Both the position numbers and the translations under genes were made by a program. The notes below the pieces were generated by a model that was not told the DNA's origin, did no database searches, and saw only the letters and a list, made by a program, of their open reading frames with translations. Below, one piece after another: positions 9,304 to 14,997 of a stretch of 64,000 bases of DNA. Source of the stretch: Candidatus Shapirobacteria bacterium (GTDB lineage Bacteria; Patescibacteriota; Microgenomatia; UBA12405). How positions within the stretch are numbered: the first letter of the stretch is position 1; each line of letters begins with the position of its first letter. The DNA is taken from NCBI GenBank assembly GCA_030698565.1, contig JAUYJS010000005.1, forward strand, positions 154,497 to 218,496, read 5' to 3'.

Positions 9304-10167
9304 TTAGAAAATTTTGCCTTGTTGGCTATATATTAAAAATATAAATATAATTAAAAGAAAACCTAAATGGCCAGCTGAGGAACCAGATATTCGATGCGTA
9401 CCATTTCTTAAAGTTATATAAGCATCGACTAAAAGAGCAAAGATTAAAATTAAAAACATGAGAGATCCGAGGAGTTTGCTGATAAATAACGGACTAATTG
9501 CTAATCGAGTGGATGTTTGGGCTAAAACTTGTGATTCATTACTTAAACCAAAAGGATGAGAGTTTAATTCGATTTCTTCCGTGGTATTGTTGGCAATAAT
9601 TCCGTCAACTGGAGTACCAAAATGTTGAGCCACCAATGTTGTTTTGATACCACTTATGACTCCGTCGGCCACGCCGATACCGATTTCTTTATATTTAGGG
9701 TTGACGATATTTTCTTTGTGTGTTGGCGATTGCATCCAAGCAGTCATCATGGATTCGGTATCATAATAATCTTTGGCGAGGTTTTCCCCTGCGACCGTAT
9801 ATTCATAATTTTGAGACTTAAAAAAATCCCAAGGAGTTTTGCCTTCTGGTGAAGTGTGGGCCCAATAATTATGAGTAAACATATCTTGAGTCTTATTTTT
9901 AGCGGAATTTGCTAATAAAGACCTAAAGTGTAGTGGTGGTAATCCATTTTTTTGCCTTTCTAAATTAGTTGAATAAAATACTTTAGCTGCGGTAATTTCG
10001 GATGAATAACCTAGAACACCAGGCTTAACTATAGTAAAAGATTTAATAAGTGTTTGATTGAAAAGATAGAAAATAATCAAAAAACTTAAAAAATGCGGAC
10101 GCAAGATACTGGCGCGATGGCTATTTCTTTCCTGGGGTACAAATAAACTTGATAGCAAGTGCTTCAC
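9304..10167 (-). CDS. CAP/SCP/PR-1 domain protein, membrane anchored
   Basis: HNYWAHTSPEGKTPWDF…YTVAGENLAKDY…MQSPTHKENIVNPKYKEIGIGV is a CAP-domain signature; N- and C-terminal hydrophobic segments. Confidence 0.6.
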   Translation of the reverse strand: MKHLLSSLFVPQERNSHRASILRPHFLSFLIIFYLFNQTLIKSFTIVKPGVLGYSSEITAAKVFYSTNLERQKNGLPPLHFRSLLANSAKNKTQDMFTHNYWAHTSPEGKTPWDFFKSQNYEYTVAGENLAKDYYDTESMMTAWMQSPTHKENIVNPKYKEIGIGVADGVISGIKTTLVAQHFGTPVDGIIANNTTEEIELNSHPFGLSNESQVLAQTSTRLAISPLFISKLLGSLMFLILIFALLVDAYITLRNGTHRISGSSAGHLGFLLIIFIFLIYSQQGKIF

Positions 10168-10181
10168 AAATTTAGTATAGA

Positions 10182-10772
10182 TTAATTAAATACCTTTGCC
10201 AAGATAAAATAAATTAAAATTACTGCACCAACACCAAAAACTATTTTTAGAGAAAAGAAATGTTTTATTCGATCAAATAGATTTGGGGAAGAGGTAGTAC
10301 CTAGTACCTCAGCACAATCAAACTTATAATTTAAGTCAAAATTAGTGGTTAAGTTTTGAAAATCGTTCCCAGTGTTTGAATTTAAACTAGCCGACCAGTC
10401 AATGGTTTCAGATTCATTAGGTTTGATGGTATTTAATGTAATATTTTTCTGAGTCAATATGTCACTCAATCGACCAGAAAATAAAATATTACTGGTTGAT
10501 AATATTTTCATCTCGATTGATTTGGATAATTTGTCGTTCCATCTTTTTCCTTTCACGATTTCTAAATTTAATTTGCATTGACTTGATTGAAGATTAATTA
10601 TCTTTAAATGACTAGTAACCTTAAATCCTGGATAAATATTATCTTGAGAAAATAAGGGTAGATTTGAAGGACTCGAACACTCACCTTCTGATTGGCAAAT
10701 TATATTTATATCGTTAGCATAAGCAAACGGAGTAAAAAGTAAAAATATAAATATAAAGATAATTAATTTCAT
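10182..10772 (-). CDS. secreted protein with C-terminal TM anchor (hypothetical)
   Basis: Signal peptide MKLIIFIFIFLLFTPFAYA, Ser/Asn-rich body, C-terminal helix plus short tail. Confidence 0.35.
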   Translation of the reverse strand: MKLIIFIFIFLLFTPFAYANDINIICQSEGECSSPSNLPLFSQDNIYPGFKVTSHLKIINLQSSQCKLNLEIVKGKRWNDKLSKSIEMKILSTSNILFSGRLSDILTQKNITLNTIKPNESETIDWSASLNSNTGNDFQNLTTNFDLNYKFDCAEVLGTTSSPNLFDRIKHFFSLKIVFGVGAVILIYFILAKVFN

Positions 10773-13159
10773 AAATTAAAAATTTTACTGAGAACTTGGG
10801 TACTGCCAATGTCTAAAATCTGAGTTAAATTAACAACGGCGGTTTGACCTATGTCTAAGTCGGGGGTACAAGTTCCTCCCGTCGAACATGTGCCTAAAAA
10901 CAACTCTCTGTCTGTTTTGGAATTTTCGATACTTTGCTTTTTAATTTCACCATAAATTCCTTTTTCTAACCCGAGGCTTGAATAAATAATTTCATAAGTT
11001 AAGTGATCAACATTTGCCGGAATATTGGAAACCGTAAAAGTAATTTTTTTTGAAGACGAGTTGTAGTTGAGCTGAGTGTCGATCGAATTTTTGGTATAAC
11101 TCCAAGTACCAACTCCGTCGGGAGTTCTTTGCCAATCAGAATTGTCGTTATTATCAACATAAGTAGTCGAATCAATAATATTATTTTCTTTTATTAACGA
11201 AATTGTGTCATGATCAGAATCAAAGAGAAAATCAAATTCGGATAGACTAAATAAATAAGCACTGGTTGGACCAACATTAATATTGGTTAAGGTTTGTGTT
11301 TGGCCAGATATATTTTTTATAAAATAGTCGTCAAGAAAAAAATCATTAGAGGTATTGTTGAATAGTTCTATCCCTGGTGAATTAAAAAATATATGGTTTA
11401 AAACAACTTCCGGTTGAACTATTATTTCAATTTGATTATTTTTCTCTTCATTGCCAGCCAAATCGGTAGAGTTAAAATTTAACAGGTTATCCCCAATTAT
11501 TAAATCTGGAATGATGGATGTATCAAATACTCCACTACCTAAATCTTGGGCAATTAGTTGGATGGTAGAAGTTTCTCCAATACGTAAATCAGTGGTCGAT
11601 ATTTTTATATCATCTATGTCGGTCCAAGCGTATCCAGAAGAACCGACATTGTTAACTCCAAAAAATAATTTTAATGGTTGGTCGTAATAGTAATTTGATA
11701 GTGGTTTACTAATGGAGCACCAACCTGAGTCGACTGGGTCACTAAAACTTCGGCCAAAATTAATTATATTTTCTAATAACTGATCATTTTGACCTAAAAT
11801 TTGAACATTAAAATTACTAAAATCATAAGTGTCGCTATTAAAAGATCTAAATGAGAAAGAGACTGTGGGGCGAAGGTTTTGGGGTAAGGAAAAGATTTGA
11901 TAGATTCCGTCTTGGACAGGTTGATCGGTGGTTGGTTCTTTAAAACCCAAAGAAAACATTTCTGAGCCAGTAGTGGGTAAAACCGTTTCTCCTACCCCTG
12001 AATCTGATGAAATTACATGGTGGTCTCCGACTGAACTTGATATGTTCCAACCCAATAACCCTGATTCAAAACTACCATTTTCTAATAAATTTTGACCGGA
12101 CCAGTTCTTAATTGAAAAAGAGGTAGAGTCGATAAAGGTAGTAGGTGGTTTGGTGTCTATTTGAACTAAATATTTTTTTCCTTCAGAGTCAATATCCGTT
12201 TCGTGTCTACCGTCTAGGGTGTGGGCAACTGTATAAAAAGTATATAAACCGTCTTCGTCGGCATTAAAATTAAAACTACCACTTTTATTTCTAAAATCTA
12301 GATTGTCTGGACAAATAAAATTTGAATCCAGATTTATAGAATAACAAAGTTGAACATAGTCCAAATTTGCCACAGAATTTAATGTGTAACCGATATTGAG
12401 ATTGTTTGTATTTACAACCGAATCTTCATTAGTAATTGAAGAAAAAACAGAAACCCAAAAACCAGTTGAAAAAGAGTTGTTTTCTATTGATGAGGTATTA
12501 GAAAAAAATGATTCGGTGTTCGGTATTTGACCAAAAGTAAATGATAAAAAAGGTATAAATATAATTAAAAGATTCAAACTACTTTTCTTGGGTTTATTTT
12601 TTTTCTTTATTTTGTATTTTTTAATTACCTCTTCTTCAATTGCTTTTTTTAATTGAAATAATTGGTTGATAAAAACATAAATTGTAGGTAATAAAATCAA
12701 AAACATAAATCCTTTTGGGGTACGCACCCAGAGAGATAAATAACCCAAAAAAGGAAAGTCAAAAATTACCTTGCCCTTAATTTGTTCGATTTTAATTGGC
12801 TCTAAATCTGGGGAACTGTTGGCGTCGCCTTTGGTTCTGAAAACCATATTTGATTCGTTTTTATCGACACTAATTACTCGATGGGTAATTAGTAGGTCTG
12901 GTTGGGTAATTGAGCTAAAAGTAACAACATCTCCCTCTTGTGTATTTTCTGTTTTATCGGCCGAAACAAATATTAATGATCCAGTTTTTATGGTTGGTTC
13001 CATAGAACCAGACATGACACGAAAAATGTAAAACTTCTTTGTGGGAGTGAAAGTAGTTAATATTATTATTAACAATGCCGATATTAAAACTAAATTTAAA
13101 ATAAAGTTAATGGTTCGTAAACTTATTTGAACAAAGTGCCTAAAAATTTTTATTATCAC
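10769..13159 (-). CDS. SipW/archaeal-type signal peptidase I (S26B) fused to ~600-aa extracellular Ser/Thr/Asn-rich domain
   Basis: N-terminal TM, then catalytic Ser box FRVMSGSMEPTIKTGSLIFV, His box ITHRVISV and FRTKGDAN. A second TM (FMFLILLPTIYVF) and lysine-rich linker follow, then a long β-rich domain. Start overlaps the upstream gene stop by 4 nt. Confidence 0.6.
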   Translation of the reverse strand: MIIKIFRHFVQISLRTINFILNLVLISALLIIILTTFTPTKKFYIFRVMSGSMEPTIKTGSLIFVSADKTENTQEGDVVTFSSITQPDLLITHRVISVDKNESNMVFRTKGDANSSPDLEPIKIEQIKGKVIFDFPFLGYLSLWVRTPKGFMFLILLPTIYVFINQLFQLKKAIEEEVIKKYKIKKKNKPKKSSLNLLIIFIPFLSFTFGQIPNTESFFSNTSSIENNSFSTGFWVSVFSSITNEDSVVNTNNLNIGYTLNSVANLDYVQLCYSINLDSNFICPDNLDFRNKSGSFNFNADEDGLYTFYTVAHTLDGRHETDIDSEGKKYLVQIDTKPPTTFIDSTSFSIKNWSGQNLLENGSFESGLLGWNISSSVGDHHVISSDSGVGETVLPTTGSEMFSLGFKEPTTDQPVQDGIYQIFSLPQNLRPTVSFSFRSFNSDTYDFSNFNVQILGQNDQLLENIINFGRSFSDPVDSGWCSISKPLSNYYYDQPLKLFFGVNNVGSSGYAWTDIDDIKISTTDLRIGETSTIQLIAQDLGSGVFDTSIIPDLIIGDNLLNFNSTDLAGNEEKNNQIEIIVQPEVVLNHIFFNSPGIELFNNTSNDFFLDDYFIKNISGQTQTLTNINVGPTSAYLFSLSEFDFLFDSDHDTISLIKENNIIDSTTYVDNNDNSDWQRTPDGVGTWSYTKNSIDTQLNYNSSSKKITFTVSNIPANVDHLTYEIIYSSLGLEKGIYGEIKKQSIENSKTDRELFLGTCSTGGTCTPDLDIGQTAVVNLTQILDIGSTQVLSKIFNL

Positions 13160-13167
13160 GAATGTTA

Positions 13168-13737
13168 TTAAAACGTCATTGTTGGGTCGCCGTCTAGCTG
13201 AACACCAGCCCCTGATTGGACTGTGTGAAATATTAAATTTGAACTGTCGATTTTTCCTTGAAGATCATTGTTGACTGATGATTTTAGAAGAGCGTCAATT
13301 CGATAATTTTTAGTTGTTCCTGGGTCAACTTGAGCCATGAGTTCCGACCAATTTGTTAGGAAAAACTTATAATCCTGCCAATCTATTATTGTTTCGTTCG
13401 AATCCTTATCGAAAACTGATAGCTCTAAATAGCTTTCGTCTAATTCTGAATTATAAAATGGACTATTTATTAAAAATTGATTAGATATTCCAAAATATAA
13501 ATCGGCATTTATAGTACCATCATATTTAATTGATATGTCTTGTGATTGTGGTTCACCGGGAAGTAGGTTTTCAAAATTTATAGGTGAAGTTAAAGATGAA
13601 TCAAGCTTGACACTCCCTGTTGTGAAAGTATTGCCGGAAATTATTTTAGTATCACTAAAATAAGCGATAACTGCCCCGGTGGTACCAATTAAAAGGAGTA
13701 TTAAAACAAGAAAACTGACAAATATTTTTTTATTCAT
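13168..13737 (-). CDS. TasA/camelysin-family secreted protein with SipW-cognate signal peptide
   Basis: MNKKIFVSFLVLILLLIGTTGAVIAYFSDTKIISGNTFTTGSVKL matches the G-T-x-A-Y-F-S-D-T…N-x-F-x-x-G signature of SipW-dependent TasA-like proteins. It sits directly upstream of the SipW-like gene. Confidence 0.6.
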   Translation of the reverse strand: MNKKIFVSFLVLILLLIGTTGAVIAYFSDTKIISGNTFTTGSVKLDSSLTSPINFENLLPGEPQSQDISIKYDGTINADLYFGISNQFLINSPFYNSELDESYLELSVFDKDSNETIIDWQDYKFFLTNWSELMAQVDPGTTKNYRIDALLKSSVNNDLQGKIDSSNLIFHTVQSGAGVQLDGDPTMTF

Positions 13738-13774: not shown

Positions 13775-14131
13775 TCAATGGGTCAGTTTTATAATTTCTC
13801 GAATTATCAAGCTACCTATCAATATTCCCACTAAATCAATAAAGGTGTCGCTTATTTTACCTTCCCTTCCAGGAACAAATTGTTGATGAAATTCATCTGA
13901 GAGTGAGTAAATATAAGCAATCAAAATTGAATATTGATATTTTTTAAAGGCTGAATATAAAAAAATACCCAATATGGCATATTCAATTAAATGCAAACTC
14001 TTGAAAAATAAAAGACTTTGGACTTGGCCGTTAATAATACCCGTGGTAGAACGGGAAGAGAAATAAAATATTACAGCCATCCATAAAACTGAAGGTAAAA
14101 ATCGGATTAAATTTTTAAAATTTAATTTCAT
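13775..14131 (-). CDS. VanZ-like family membrane protein
   Basis: 118 aa; LWMAVIFYFSSRS start and four TM helices, typical of VanZ. Confidence 0.45.
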   Translation of the reverse strand: MKLNFKNLIRFLPSVLWMAVIFYFSSRSTTGIINGQVQSLLFFKSLHLIEYAILGIFLYSAFKKYQYSILIAYIYSLSDEFHQQFVPGREGKISDTFIDLVGILIGSLIIREIIKLTH

Positions 14132-14997
14132 GTGTCAGATTTTTTTAGAAATAACGGTATTAAAAGTAGAATACCACCCGAAATTATAAAAATCATTGGT
14201 AAGTAATTTGATTTCTTTTCGTTTTGATTTTTTATTATATTTACTGGGGTTGGGCTAATTTCAGAAACAACGGTCTCACCTAAAACATATTCGCTTGTTG
14301 GAGTAATCAAATCAGAACTCGAAGTTGCCTCTGGACTTGTTGGTGTTGGTGACGGTGATATTGGACTTAGGGTTGGTGTGGGTGTTTTTGTTGGTGTGAA
14401 TGTTGGTGACGGAACATTAGTTGGTTGTGGAGTATTAGTGGGAGTATTGGTGGGTGTGGGTGAAGGAGGCGGATTGGAAATATTTAAATAAACAGAATTA
14501 CTTAAAATAGCATTACCAGAACTGGTGTATTTGGCTGATTCAATTATTTTGCAAGTTATTTTGCAACTGCCATTAGCAGATGAGAACTTAACTCGAATAG
14601 TGATATTTTGACTAATGTTTCCAGAAGAATCTGTTGAAAATTTTGGCATATTTTGCCAACTGCCGTTATACCCATTAAGCCAATTAGAATCATTTTGTAC
14701 CTCGACGGAATAATTATCACTACCAACTCCTCCGTAACATTTAAAATAATAGTCGGTATCGTTTTTCCCATGAGAAAAAATAAAATTTAATAAAAAAGAC
14801 TGCTCCTTAAATTCATCGCTCGAGTTTAAGCTTACTACCAAGGAAACAGCTGTGCTGCCAATTGTCGGCGTTGGAGCGATTGTAATTGTGGGTGTATTTG
14901 TAGAAGTTGGAGTCAATGTTGGAATATCAGTCACAGTTTGACCAAATATTGGAACAGGAAATATTATTCGTAATAAATATAACAATAAAACAAACAC
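14128..14997 (-). CDS. Pro/Thr-rich cell-surface protein with C-terminal membrane anchor
   Basis: Signal peptide, a PT-repeat block (TPTSTNTPTITIAPTPT), Cys-containing globular core, a second PT linker (PSPTPTNTPTNTPQPTNVPSPTFTPTKTPTPT), then a TM helix and KKSDT tail. Confidence 0.4.
   Translation of the reverse strand: MFVLLLYLLRIIFPVPIFGQTVTDIPTLTPTSTNTPTITIAPTPTIGSTAVSLVVSLNSSDEFKEQSFLLNFIFSHGKNDTDYYFKCYGGVGSDNYSVEVQNDSNWLNGYNGSWQNMPKFSTDSSGNISQNITIRVKFSSANGSCKITCKIIESAKYTSSGNAILSNSVYLNISNPPPSPTPTNTPTNTPQPTNVPSPTFTPTKTPTPTLSPISPSPTPTSPEATSSSDLITPTSEYVLGETVVSEISPTPVNIIKNQNEKKSNYLPMIFIISGGILLLIPLFLKKSDT

Follow-up and report, generated by a model that had tools for sequence, protein, structure and literature searches.

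We analysed a window of 64,000 nucleotides from a Candidatus Shapirobacteria bacterium (GC content ~33 %), and this report concerns an open reading frame (ORF) on its minus strand that joins a SipW-type signal peptidase to a large ectodomain resembling the substrate of such an enzyme. The ORF lies between a gene for a TasA-family protein and a gene for a second protein with a predicted TasA fold. The original prediction had seen in it an archaeal/ER-type (endoplasmic reticulum-type) S26 peptidase joined covalently to a large ectodomain, and our analysis agreed, with an extracellular region of ~580 aa. The product is identical to NCBI MDP4009775.1, annotated as 'signal peptidase I [Candidatus Shapirobacteria bacterium]' from a 232-kb contig of a metagenome-assembled genome (MAG), and the databases label the fusion proteins only as 'signal peptidase I'. 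The ORF and the features of its peptidase part, with the transmembrane segments (TMs) numbered from the N-terminus, are as follows.

10769..13159, minus strand: fusion ORF (SipW-type signal peptidase and substrate-like ectodomain), 796 aa, GTG start.
13049..13105, minus strand: TM1, residues 19-37, predicted N-in peptidase anchor (Kyte-Doolittle 19-residue mean 2.69).
12719..13042, minus strand: predicted extracytoplasmic S26B catalytic domain, residues 40-147 (TIGR02228 and residue conservation).
13004-13006, minus strand: codon of Ser52.
12881-12883, minus strand: codon of His93.
12824-12826, minus strand: codon of Asp112.
12806-12808, minus strand: codon of Asp118.
12656..12712, minus strand: TM2, residues 150-168, the C-terminal TM of a typical SipW/Sec11-type peptidase (hydropathy; AlphaFold2 (AF2) helix 148-182).

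Analysis with the archaeal-type signal peptidase I model TIGR02228 gave a match to residues 20-164 of the fusion protein (114.2 bits, cut-off 51.85), and a Pfam scan placed Peptidase_S26 and S24 at the N-terminus. The equivalog model for Bacillus SipW, NF046067, scored 114.6 bits, below its cut-off of 190; the fusion peptidase is therefore SipW-like rather than orthologous to the Bacillus enzyme. Its catalytic residues are Ser52 (in SGSMEP), His93 (in THR, in place of the bacterial Lys), Asp112 (in GDAN) and Asp118. The Ser box SGSMEP and the His box THRV had been predicted, and both were present, together with the GDAN box. Substitution of catalytic residues in homologues had been raised as a possible objection, and all four were found to be kept among the aligned homologues (Ser52 in 48/49, His93 in 50/50, Asp112 in 49/50 and Asp118 in 50/50). 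The sequence has what defines S26B/TIGR02228, namely the profile score, the Ser/His/Asp boxes, and two TMs flanking an extracytoplasmic catalytic domain. The tail N-terminal to TM1 contains three K/R and no D/E, and an AF2 helix (residues 2-36) covers TM1. Judged by these sequence features, residues 1-168 make up an intact archaeal/ER-type (SipW/Sec11-type) signal peptidase with predicted activity. A search of the window for a second signal peptidase found the motif S[GASD]SMxP in the fusion ORF alone.

The original prediction had noted a second TM along with the catalytic boxes. TM2 is indeed there, but hydropathy gives three TMs (19-37, 150-168, and 194-212) rather than two, and the third opens the junction between the two halves of the protein. 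The features of this junction are given below; pLDDT is the predicted local distance difference test score, and HMM stands for hidden Markov model.

12581..12655, minus strand: Lys-rich loop, predicted cytoplasmic, residues 169-193, would-be n-region of an internal signal peptide (charge; pLDDT <50).
12524..12580, minus strand: TM3, residues 194-212, putative h-region of the internal SipW-type signal peptide (hydropathy 1.74).
12509..12523, minus strand: putative c-region PNTES, residues 213-217; cleavage predicted after Ser217 (-3 Thr, -1 Ser).
12461..12508, minus strand: FFSNTSSIENNSFSTG, residues 218-233, TasA/TapA-like putative donor-strand motif at the predicted mature N-terminus (alignment, HMM, and co-variation).

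The charge of the loop (11 K/R against 3 D/E in residues 168-195) indicates that it is cytoplasmic and, therefore, that residues 213-796 lie outside the cell. Its DNA is A-rich with A6-A8 runs. Residues 169-217 have, as far as sequence can tell, the anatomy of a signal peptide, in which a basic n-region leads into TM3, the h-region, and T-E-S fills positions -3 to -1. In addition, TM3 aligns with the N-terminal signal peptides of the stand-alone homologues P0004, P0006, and P0074.

Statistics for the junction were taken from an alignment of 55 sequences of relatives, in all of which the site is gap-free. Position -3 is T, A, S, I or V, and position -1 is A in 42 sequences, S in nine, T in two, and N in two. 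Beyond the predicted cut, Phe occupies position +2 in 49/55, Ser position +3 in 41/55, and Asp position +4 in 42/55. F219, the Phe at +2 of the fusion protein, is one of only 11 invariant columns in a full-length alignment of 14 sequences.

Our analysis also showed that the consensus of the mature N-terminus, xF[SN]D...F[ST][ST]G, is common to the fusion protein and the neighbouring TasA-family protein, and that the junction segment has the same layout as the N-terminus of that neighbour, ...GAVIA-YFSDTKIISGNTFTTG. In TasA, the donor strand comprises residues 28-38, starting from the N-terminus made by SipW, with hydrophobic contacts through F29, I32, and F39 (PMC9674648). F219 of the fusion protein is the counterpart of TasA F29, and F230-S-T-G is that of F39-A-S-G; conservation reaches +16 and covers the equivalents of both. 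The N-terminus of TapA likewise resembles the TasA donor strand (PMC9674648), and TapA starts filaments by donating its N-terminus, its own immunoglobulin (Ig) fold being already complete (PMC10151520). We trained an HMM of our own on 11 TasA-like proteins that stand alone in related loci, taking the first 48 residues of each and leaving out all fusions. In 95 long SipW-domain proteins, the top match of this HMM lay 12-46 residues past the peptidase domain, and 39 of the 95 reached at least 10 bits, with a maximum of 25 bits. In the fusion protein of the window it matched residues 214-233 (10.0 bits, iE 0.007). When all six frames of the 64-kb window were scanned with a regular expression, the TasA-like gene and the fusion ORF alone carried the motif.

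The motif was then compared between neighbouring genes. For eight loci, 18 residues from +1 of the fused or free ectodomain were set against those of the immediately upstream TasA-like gene. Within-locus pairs shared 61 identities, as against 42.75 +/- 4.75 over all 40,320 pairings (P=1.2e-4), and the result was unchanged when the YFSD core was excluded. Examples of co-varying residues are IETG/IETG in L002, DNSFSS/DNSFSS in L003, and VTFS/VTFS in L005.

To collect relatives of the ectodomain, 1.84 billion representative proteins were searched exhaustively with HMMER, residues 213-796 being the query. There were 129 at E<=1e-3 and 43 at E<=1e-30; a word-indexed search gave only 11 proteins. 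Among the 43 best representatives, 20 were fused to a peptidase, 16 were stand-alone proteins with a signal-like hydrophobic N-terminus, and seven were fragments. The hydrophobic N-termini of the stand-alone proteins were nearly always followed by TNAYFS-type motifs. The suggestion that homologous fusions be looked for in other genomes of the Candidate Phyla Radiation (CPR) was followed, and fused homologues were found in many independent assemblies. A search for related loci with the diverse alignment A1 detected no conserved stretch, and with alignment A5 it detected a single GTDB locus, L003; therefore, the ectodomain family is rare among species representatives.

The form of the gene differs among related loci. 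In L001 (the locus of P0004), which is syntenic with the window, there is no sipW and the ectodomain gene is free-standing; the order is GltX, Pro/Thr-rich surface protein, VanZ, TasA-like, ectodomain, a 214-aa protein with a C-terminal TM, CAP, TrmD, and GT2/GtrA. In L002, the two parts are encoded by different ORFs: a sipW of 169 aa that stops after TM2, and an ectodomain gene that lies in another frame and shares 44 nt with it. The split (1050-1105) adjoins T8 and A6 runs, and it could reflect true gene fission, a mistake in assembly, or slippage-prone alternation of a fused and a split form. In L003 (5614-7353; P0017 of Ca. Shapirobacteria ELA138), TM2, the loop, and TM3 are all missing, and a TPTKS-YFIDQ...DNSFSS motif follows directly after the catalytic domain. 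Because these three forms differ, fusion and fission appear to have occurred repeatedly, and the alignments indicate that the TM3 segment serves elsewhere as an ordinary cleavable signal peptide. In L009 (5001-6950; P0018), the fused passenger itself holds a TasA/camelysin domain (PF12389), followed by a lamin-tail domain (LTD); a protein of the fibre-subunit type can therefore be joined to the peptidase as well. Outside the CPR, fused SipW proteins occur in Williamsia and Rhodococcus; their features are an R-rich loop, a third TM, and the motif AA-[YF]-x-D...F-[AT]-[AS]. In Rhodococcus globerulus (L008, 2549-7180), a single cluster combines three TasA-like genes with two sipW genes, one stand-alone and the other fused (542 aa), and the fused product shows the R-rich loop, the third TM, and TGTAAA-FQDTARAQSTFTAAS. 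Two distant matches, P0042 and P0043, are SipW-type peptidases fused to a sortase domain (PF04203).

A frameshift or misassembly that merged an ordinary sipW with a separate downstream gene would also produce an ORF of this kind. L002, where both parts are separate ORFs in different frames near T/A homopolymer runs, and the A6-A8 runs in the linker DNA of the fusion ORF itself fit this explanation. However, the identical, unbroken ORF is present in one NCBI MAG and in two Logan assemblies. The junction is likewise unbroken in an 89 %-identical homologue from the Joint Genome Institute (JGI) and in dozens of homologues of 30-40 % identity, drawn from independent sources, and nearly half of the best ectodomain representatives are fused. 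Continuous fused ORFs thus recur in numerous assemblies made independently, among them those that encode P0003 (1.1-Mb contig) and the NCBI proteins P0005, P0008, and P0012. The fusion ORF is therefore real and not an assembly artefact; the frameshift explanation is effectively refuted, and we give it almost no chance. The original prediction had allowed for such a frameshift, and the ORF proved continuous in the window and in many relatives, a linker frameshift splitting it in the relative L002.

The ectodomain had been described earlier as rich in Ser, Thr, and Asn and as having no recognisable motif. The composition was as described (Ser 12.3, Asn 9.9, and Thr 8.7 %). The absence of motifs holds apart from the donor-strand-like motif at 215-233 and a sub-threshold lamin-tail match. 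The AF2 model of the fusion protein, made with a 55-sequence alignment, had a mean pLDDT of 86.5. Low confidence was confined to residues 183-239 (loop, TM3, and motif), as expected if this stretch comprises a linker and a signal peptide followed by a strand that is free at the N-terminus, and the score was >90 over most of 240-796. The ectodomain was divided into five domains by AF2 secondary structure and Foldseek PDB matches. Domain boundaries and the fold had been proposed as checks, and the predicted structure yields Ig-like and carbohydrate-binding-module-like (CBM-like) domains (Fn3, fibronectin type III):

12125..12442, minus strand: D1, predicted seven-strand Ig/Fn3-like domain, residues ~240-345 (AF2 pLDDT >90; Fn3-array matches).
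11585..12112, minus strand: D2, predicted CBM-like jelly roll, residues ~350-525 (Foldseek).
11414..11581, minus strand: D3, predicted small Ig-like domain, residues ~527-582 (AF2; weak Big_13 and OmpL47 matches).
11090..11413, minus strand: D4, predicted LTD-like beta-sandwich, residues ~583-690 (PF00932 sub-threshold; AF2).
10772..11089, minus strand: D5, predicted orphan C-terminal beta-sandwich of ~105 aa, residues 691-796 (motif YEIxY...GIxGxI...LGTCSxGGxC).

D2 matched 2c26 (E 4.2e-7), 2zey (CBM16; TMt 0.60), 1umi (Fbs1 sugar-binding domain; TMt 0.48), and 1wky (a mannanase CBM). For D4, PF00932 gave 23.3-25.5 bits on residues 583-668 (gathering cut-off 34.3), the AF2 beta-sandwich was confident, and PF00932 is precomputed for many homologues of the fusion. 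D5 holds the most conserved motifs of the ectodomain (YEIxY, GIxGxI, and LGTCSxGGxC), with Y722, Y726, C758, S759, and C764 invariant; our searches found neither a Pfam family nor a PDB sequence relative for it. D5 was also considered as a TasA-like acceptor domain, which was ruled out (hhalign Prob 0.3 %). D5 occurs alone in many CPR proteins of 140-390 aa, some of which also have an N-terminal YFSD...GNTFST motif. Pfam and NCBIfam scans of the fusion protein and its parts gave no family-model match outside the peptidase and LTD-like regions. The TapA family model did not match the ectodomain in these scans either, and the ectodomain may work like TapA while being, by sequence, no TapA homologue.

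The genes on both sides of the fusion ORF are listed below.

14128..14997, minus strand: 289-aa Pro/Thr-rich surface protein with a C-terminal TM tail, upstream end of the cluster (counterparts in L001, L003, L004 (with LTD), and L005).
13775..14131, minus strand: VanZ-like membrane protein (PF04892, 64.4 bits; in L001, L003, L005, L006, and L007).
13168..13737, minus strand: TasA-family protein, 189 aa, with a SipW-dependent signal peptide, predicted fibre subunit (PF12389, TIGR04088).
10182..10772, minus strand: 196-aa protein with a predicted TasA fold, candidate membrane anchor/terminator; its start overlaps the fusion stop codon by 4 nt.
9304..10167, minus strand: CAP/YkwD-like protein with flanking TMs, downstream end of the cluster (PF00188, 62.7 bits; in L001 and L003-L007).

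The TasA-family gene lies 8 nt upstream of the fusion ORF. Its product, named 'TasA family protein' by NCBI, scored 28.6 bits with PF12389 (cut-off 22.5) and 24.2 bits with TIGR04088 (cut-off 19). The 196-aa protein has an ordinary signal peptide, no donor motif (F...F[ST][ST]G), and a C-terminal TM helix; it also has a conserved Cys-bracketed N-terminal hairpin (C26/C32), plus C66 and C153. It had no Pfam match. An hhalign comparison with the TasA-like family gave Prob 96.4 % and E 1.2e-9 over 109 columns, the match beginning past the donor-strand region. Its AF2 model (pLDDT 76.7, helix 165-195) had B. subtilis TasA 5of2 (E 4.5e-5, TM-score ~0.5) and 5of1 as best PDB matches in Foldseek, with Pyrobaculum AbpA 7ueg ranking 17. 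Only seven relatives were found among 5.8 billion proteins.

The cluster arrangement recurs in L001-L007 and L009. The CAP/YkwD-like, VanZ-like, and Pro/Thr-rich genes keep the same order in L001 and L003-L007, and together the genes suggest a six-gene surface module between gltX and trmD. The order in L004-L007 and L009 is one or two TasA-like genes, the SipW fusion, a protein with a TasA-fold module, and a CAP-domain protein, usually with VanZ and a Pro/Thr-rich or LTD surface protein upstream. In L004, L006, L007, and L009, two TasA-like genes precede the fusion. In these five loci, the downstream protein has at its N-terminus the TasA-fold module of the 196-aa protein, to which Fn3 spacers are sometimes added; complete genes also encode a C-terminal TM with a basic tail. 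In every locus compared, the ectodomain gene has a TasA-like gene on one side and a TasA-fold gene on the other. A C-terminal tail of the form GG-x-LLL-x-PL-basic is common to the Pro/Thr-rich proteins.

Because the junction has all parts of a signal peptide and the signal peptides of stand-alone relatives align with TM3, the ectodomain is more likely to be a substrate released by cleavage than a means of positioning the enzyme. We consider it fairly probable that the fusion is an enzyme-substrate precursor whose cleavage takes place within a TasA-type fibre system. The chances that the N-terminus of the ectodomain then donates a strand to the TasA-like subunit seem to us about even. That the 196-aa TasA-fold protein anchors the fibre is possible, though somewhat doubtful.

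These parts would work together as follows. TM1 and TM2 would insert the peptidase, the Lys-rich loop would remain intracellular, and TM3 would export the passenger in the manner of a signal peptide. The peptidase domain would cut after Ser217, in cis or from a neighbouring molecule, leaving a normal-sized two-TM SipW with a clipped signal segment and freeing an ectodomain of ~64 kDa. The freed FFSN... N-terminus would nucleate the fibre by slotting into the first TasA-like subunit as its donor strand, as does TapA and as AbpB is proposed to do: in the archaeal bundling pili of Pyrobaculum, AbpB is the proposed supplier of the first strand and the distal adhesin (PMC9245690). The same peptidase would then process the TasA-like subunits. 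The Ig, CBM, and LTD modules, with glycan-binding-like domains among them, would be placed at the distal tip as an adhesin, and the donor-less, TM-anchored 196-aa protein would accept the last donor strand, terminating and anchoring the fibre. With the two fused, every peptidase would come with exactly one initiator, synthesised where the enzyme itself enters the membrane. We offer the complete picture tentatively: the ORF would encode a self-processing precursor, each copy of which frees a single molecule that is both initiator and tip adhesin of a TasA-type pilus. This pilus would have three parts (donor-only tip, TasA-like shaft, and donor-less TM-anchored terminator), would be built with neither usher nor sortase, would be widespread in CPR and simpler in Actinobacteria such as Rhodococcus, and would perhaps be used for host attachment.

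The original prediction had supposed a tether. Were this tether permanent, TM3 would be a stable, uncleaved span and the ectodomain would hold the enzyme at the base of the TasA-like structure or form an usher-like platform, possibly presenting its strand while tethered. About half of the family is fused, suggesting that the linkage itself has value, and the operon context links the protein to a TasA-like structure. P0017 joins its ectodomain to the catalytic domain with no h-region, so that this variant may stay tethered. Nevertheless, the small-residue rule at -3/-1 is kept in essentially all 55 sequences, P0017 (T-K-S) included, whereas a permanent span needs no such residues. The TM3 segment is an ordinary N-terminal signal peptide in the 16 stand-alone representatives and in the syntenic L001, and the motif begins five residues past TM3, which leaves little room for subunit binding; moreover, the donor strand of TasA starts at a free, cleaved N-terminus. 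We regard such a tether as unlikely. The earlier idea that the enzyme is positioned at, or is part of, the structure that it processes keeps the support of its context, with a TasA-family gene upstream and a TasA-fold, membrane-anchored protein downstream, while its permanent link is disfavoured by the anatomy of the junction and by the stand-alone relatives.

The ectodomain could, alternatively, be cleaved and have no part in a fibre, being a secreted or surface glycan-binding protein whose conserved N-terminus serves peptidase recognition only and whose fusion reflects genome streamlining. The resemblance of D2 to CBMs agrees with this, as do the LTD-like and Ig-like modules, typical of free surface proteins. 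The TIGR04088 motif is defined as a signal-peptide feature, and strand donation is argued here at the level of sequence. Type I signal peptidases mainly read -3/-1 and the h-region. However, conservation extends to +16, at the equivalents of the TasA subunit-contact positions, the motif co-varies with the adjacent TasA-like subunit, and the gene always sits between TasA-like and TasA-fold genes. A purely secreted role is, in our opinion, improbable.

Several observations weigh against the proposal of a cleaved, strand-donating precursor. The co-variation comes from eight loci that are phylogenetically related, and so from few independent events, its register was hand-made and ungapped, and it could reflect shared peptidase specificity rather than a shared groove. 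TIGR04088 gave no match on the isolated junction segment of the window (residues 186-240; cut-off 19 bits), and the segment of the homologue P0008 scored 14.8 bits, also below 19. The score of the window with our own HMM is modest (10 bits), and its motif is degenerate, with FFSN for YFSD and Ser for Ala at -1. Judging from its sequence, P0017 cannot be a conventional signal-peptidase substrate, and in its lineage processing or tethering must work differently. Finally, the polarity of the model (tip, shaft, and anchor) is inferred throughout.

To our knowledge, type I signal peptidases are regarded as stand-alone housekeeping enzymes or as enzymes dedicated to an operon, and little is known of how CPR cells attach to their partners. 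Full-text literature searches (SipW fusions, signal peptidase with lamin tail domain, TasA in Patescibacteria, TIGR04088, and SipW in CPR) found no description of the present architecture; one paper notes merely that PF12389 occurs in Patescibacteria. An enzyme and its substrate in one chain, divided by an internal signal peptide, would be a new peptidase architecture and a bacterial counterpart of the internal signal peptides in viral polyproteins. It would also give Microgenomates/Shapirobacteria a candidate surface fibre whose tip, shaft, and anchor can be assigned. The fused form should make TapA-type initiation easier to test, with S52-dependent cleavage as a simple read-out, and the fused SipW of R. 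globerulus, in a related TasA-like cluster, offers a cultivable entry point that would be a tractable model.

Compared with known systems, the streptococcal pilus-island proteins SipA/LepA are also of the S26 family, lie inside a surface-fibre cluster, and are needed for fibre assembly. These proteins lack the catalytic residues and are chaperones for sortase-built pili, whereas the fusion protein keeps Ser/His/Asp and would belong to a donor-strand system. In viral polyproteins such as those of flaviviruses, an internal TM that resembles a signal peptide takes the part behind it through the membrane, and host signal peptidase cuts this TM on the trans side. The peptidase is a separate host enzyme there, but the present precursor would carry its own.

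The tapA-sipW-tasA operon of B. subtilis is similar in having a dedicated ER/archaeal-type peptidase beside a TasA-family subunit, and an accessory protein in which a complete Ig-like fold comes after a cleaved N-terminus similar to the TasA donor strand. It differs in that here a single polypeptide holds both peptidase and accessory protein, with a putative internal signal peptide between them, the accessory part is ~580 aa long with CBM-like, LTD-like, and orphan domains, and there is an additional, separate TasA-fold protein with a C-terminal TM helix. In Pyrobaculum, AbpA/AbpB similarly pair a TasA-like donor-strand pilin with a larger neighbour of several beta-domains (PMC9245690). No dedicated peptidase gene was found at that archaeal bundling pilus locus, where the general signal peptidase is credited (PMC9245690), whereas the enzyme here is dedicated and fused. 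The sipW-calY1-bc1280-calY2 cluster of B. cereus resembles L004, L006, L007, and L009 in that sipW is clustered with two TasA-family paralogues, but its SipW is separate and of normal size, and its accessory factor BC1280/CapP is unrelated. By these analogies, the system would be a variant of the known TasA-type systems that works like tapA-sipW-tasA and AbpA/AbpB, and it is the fused architecture that appears to be new.

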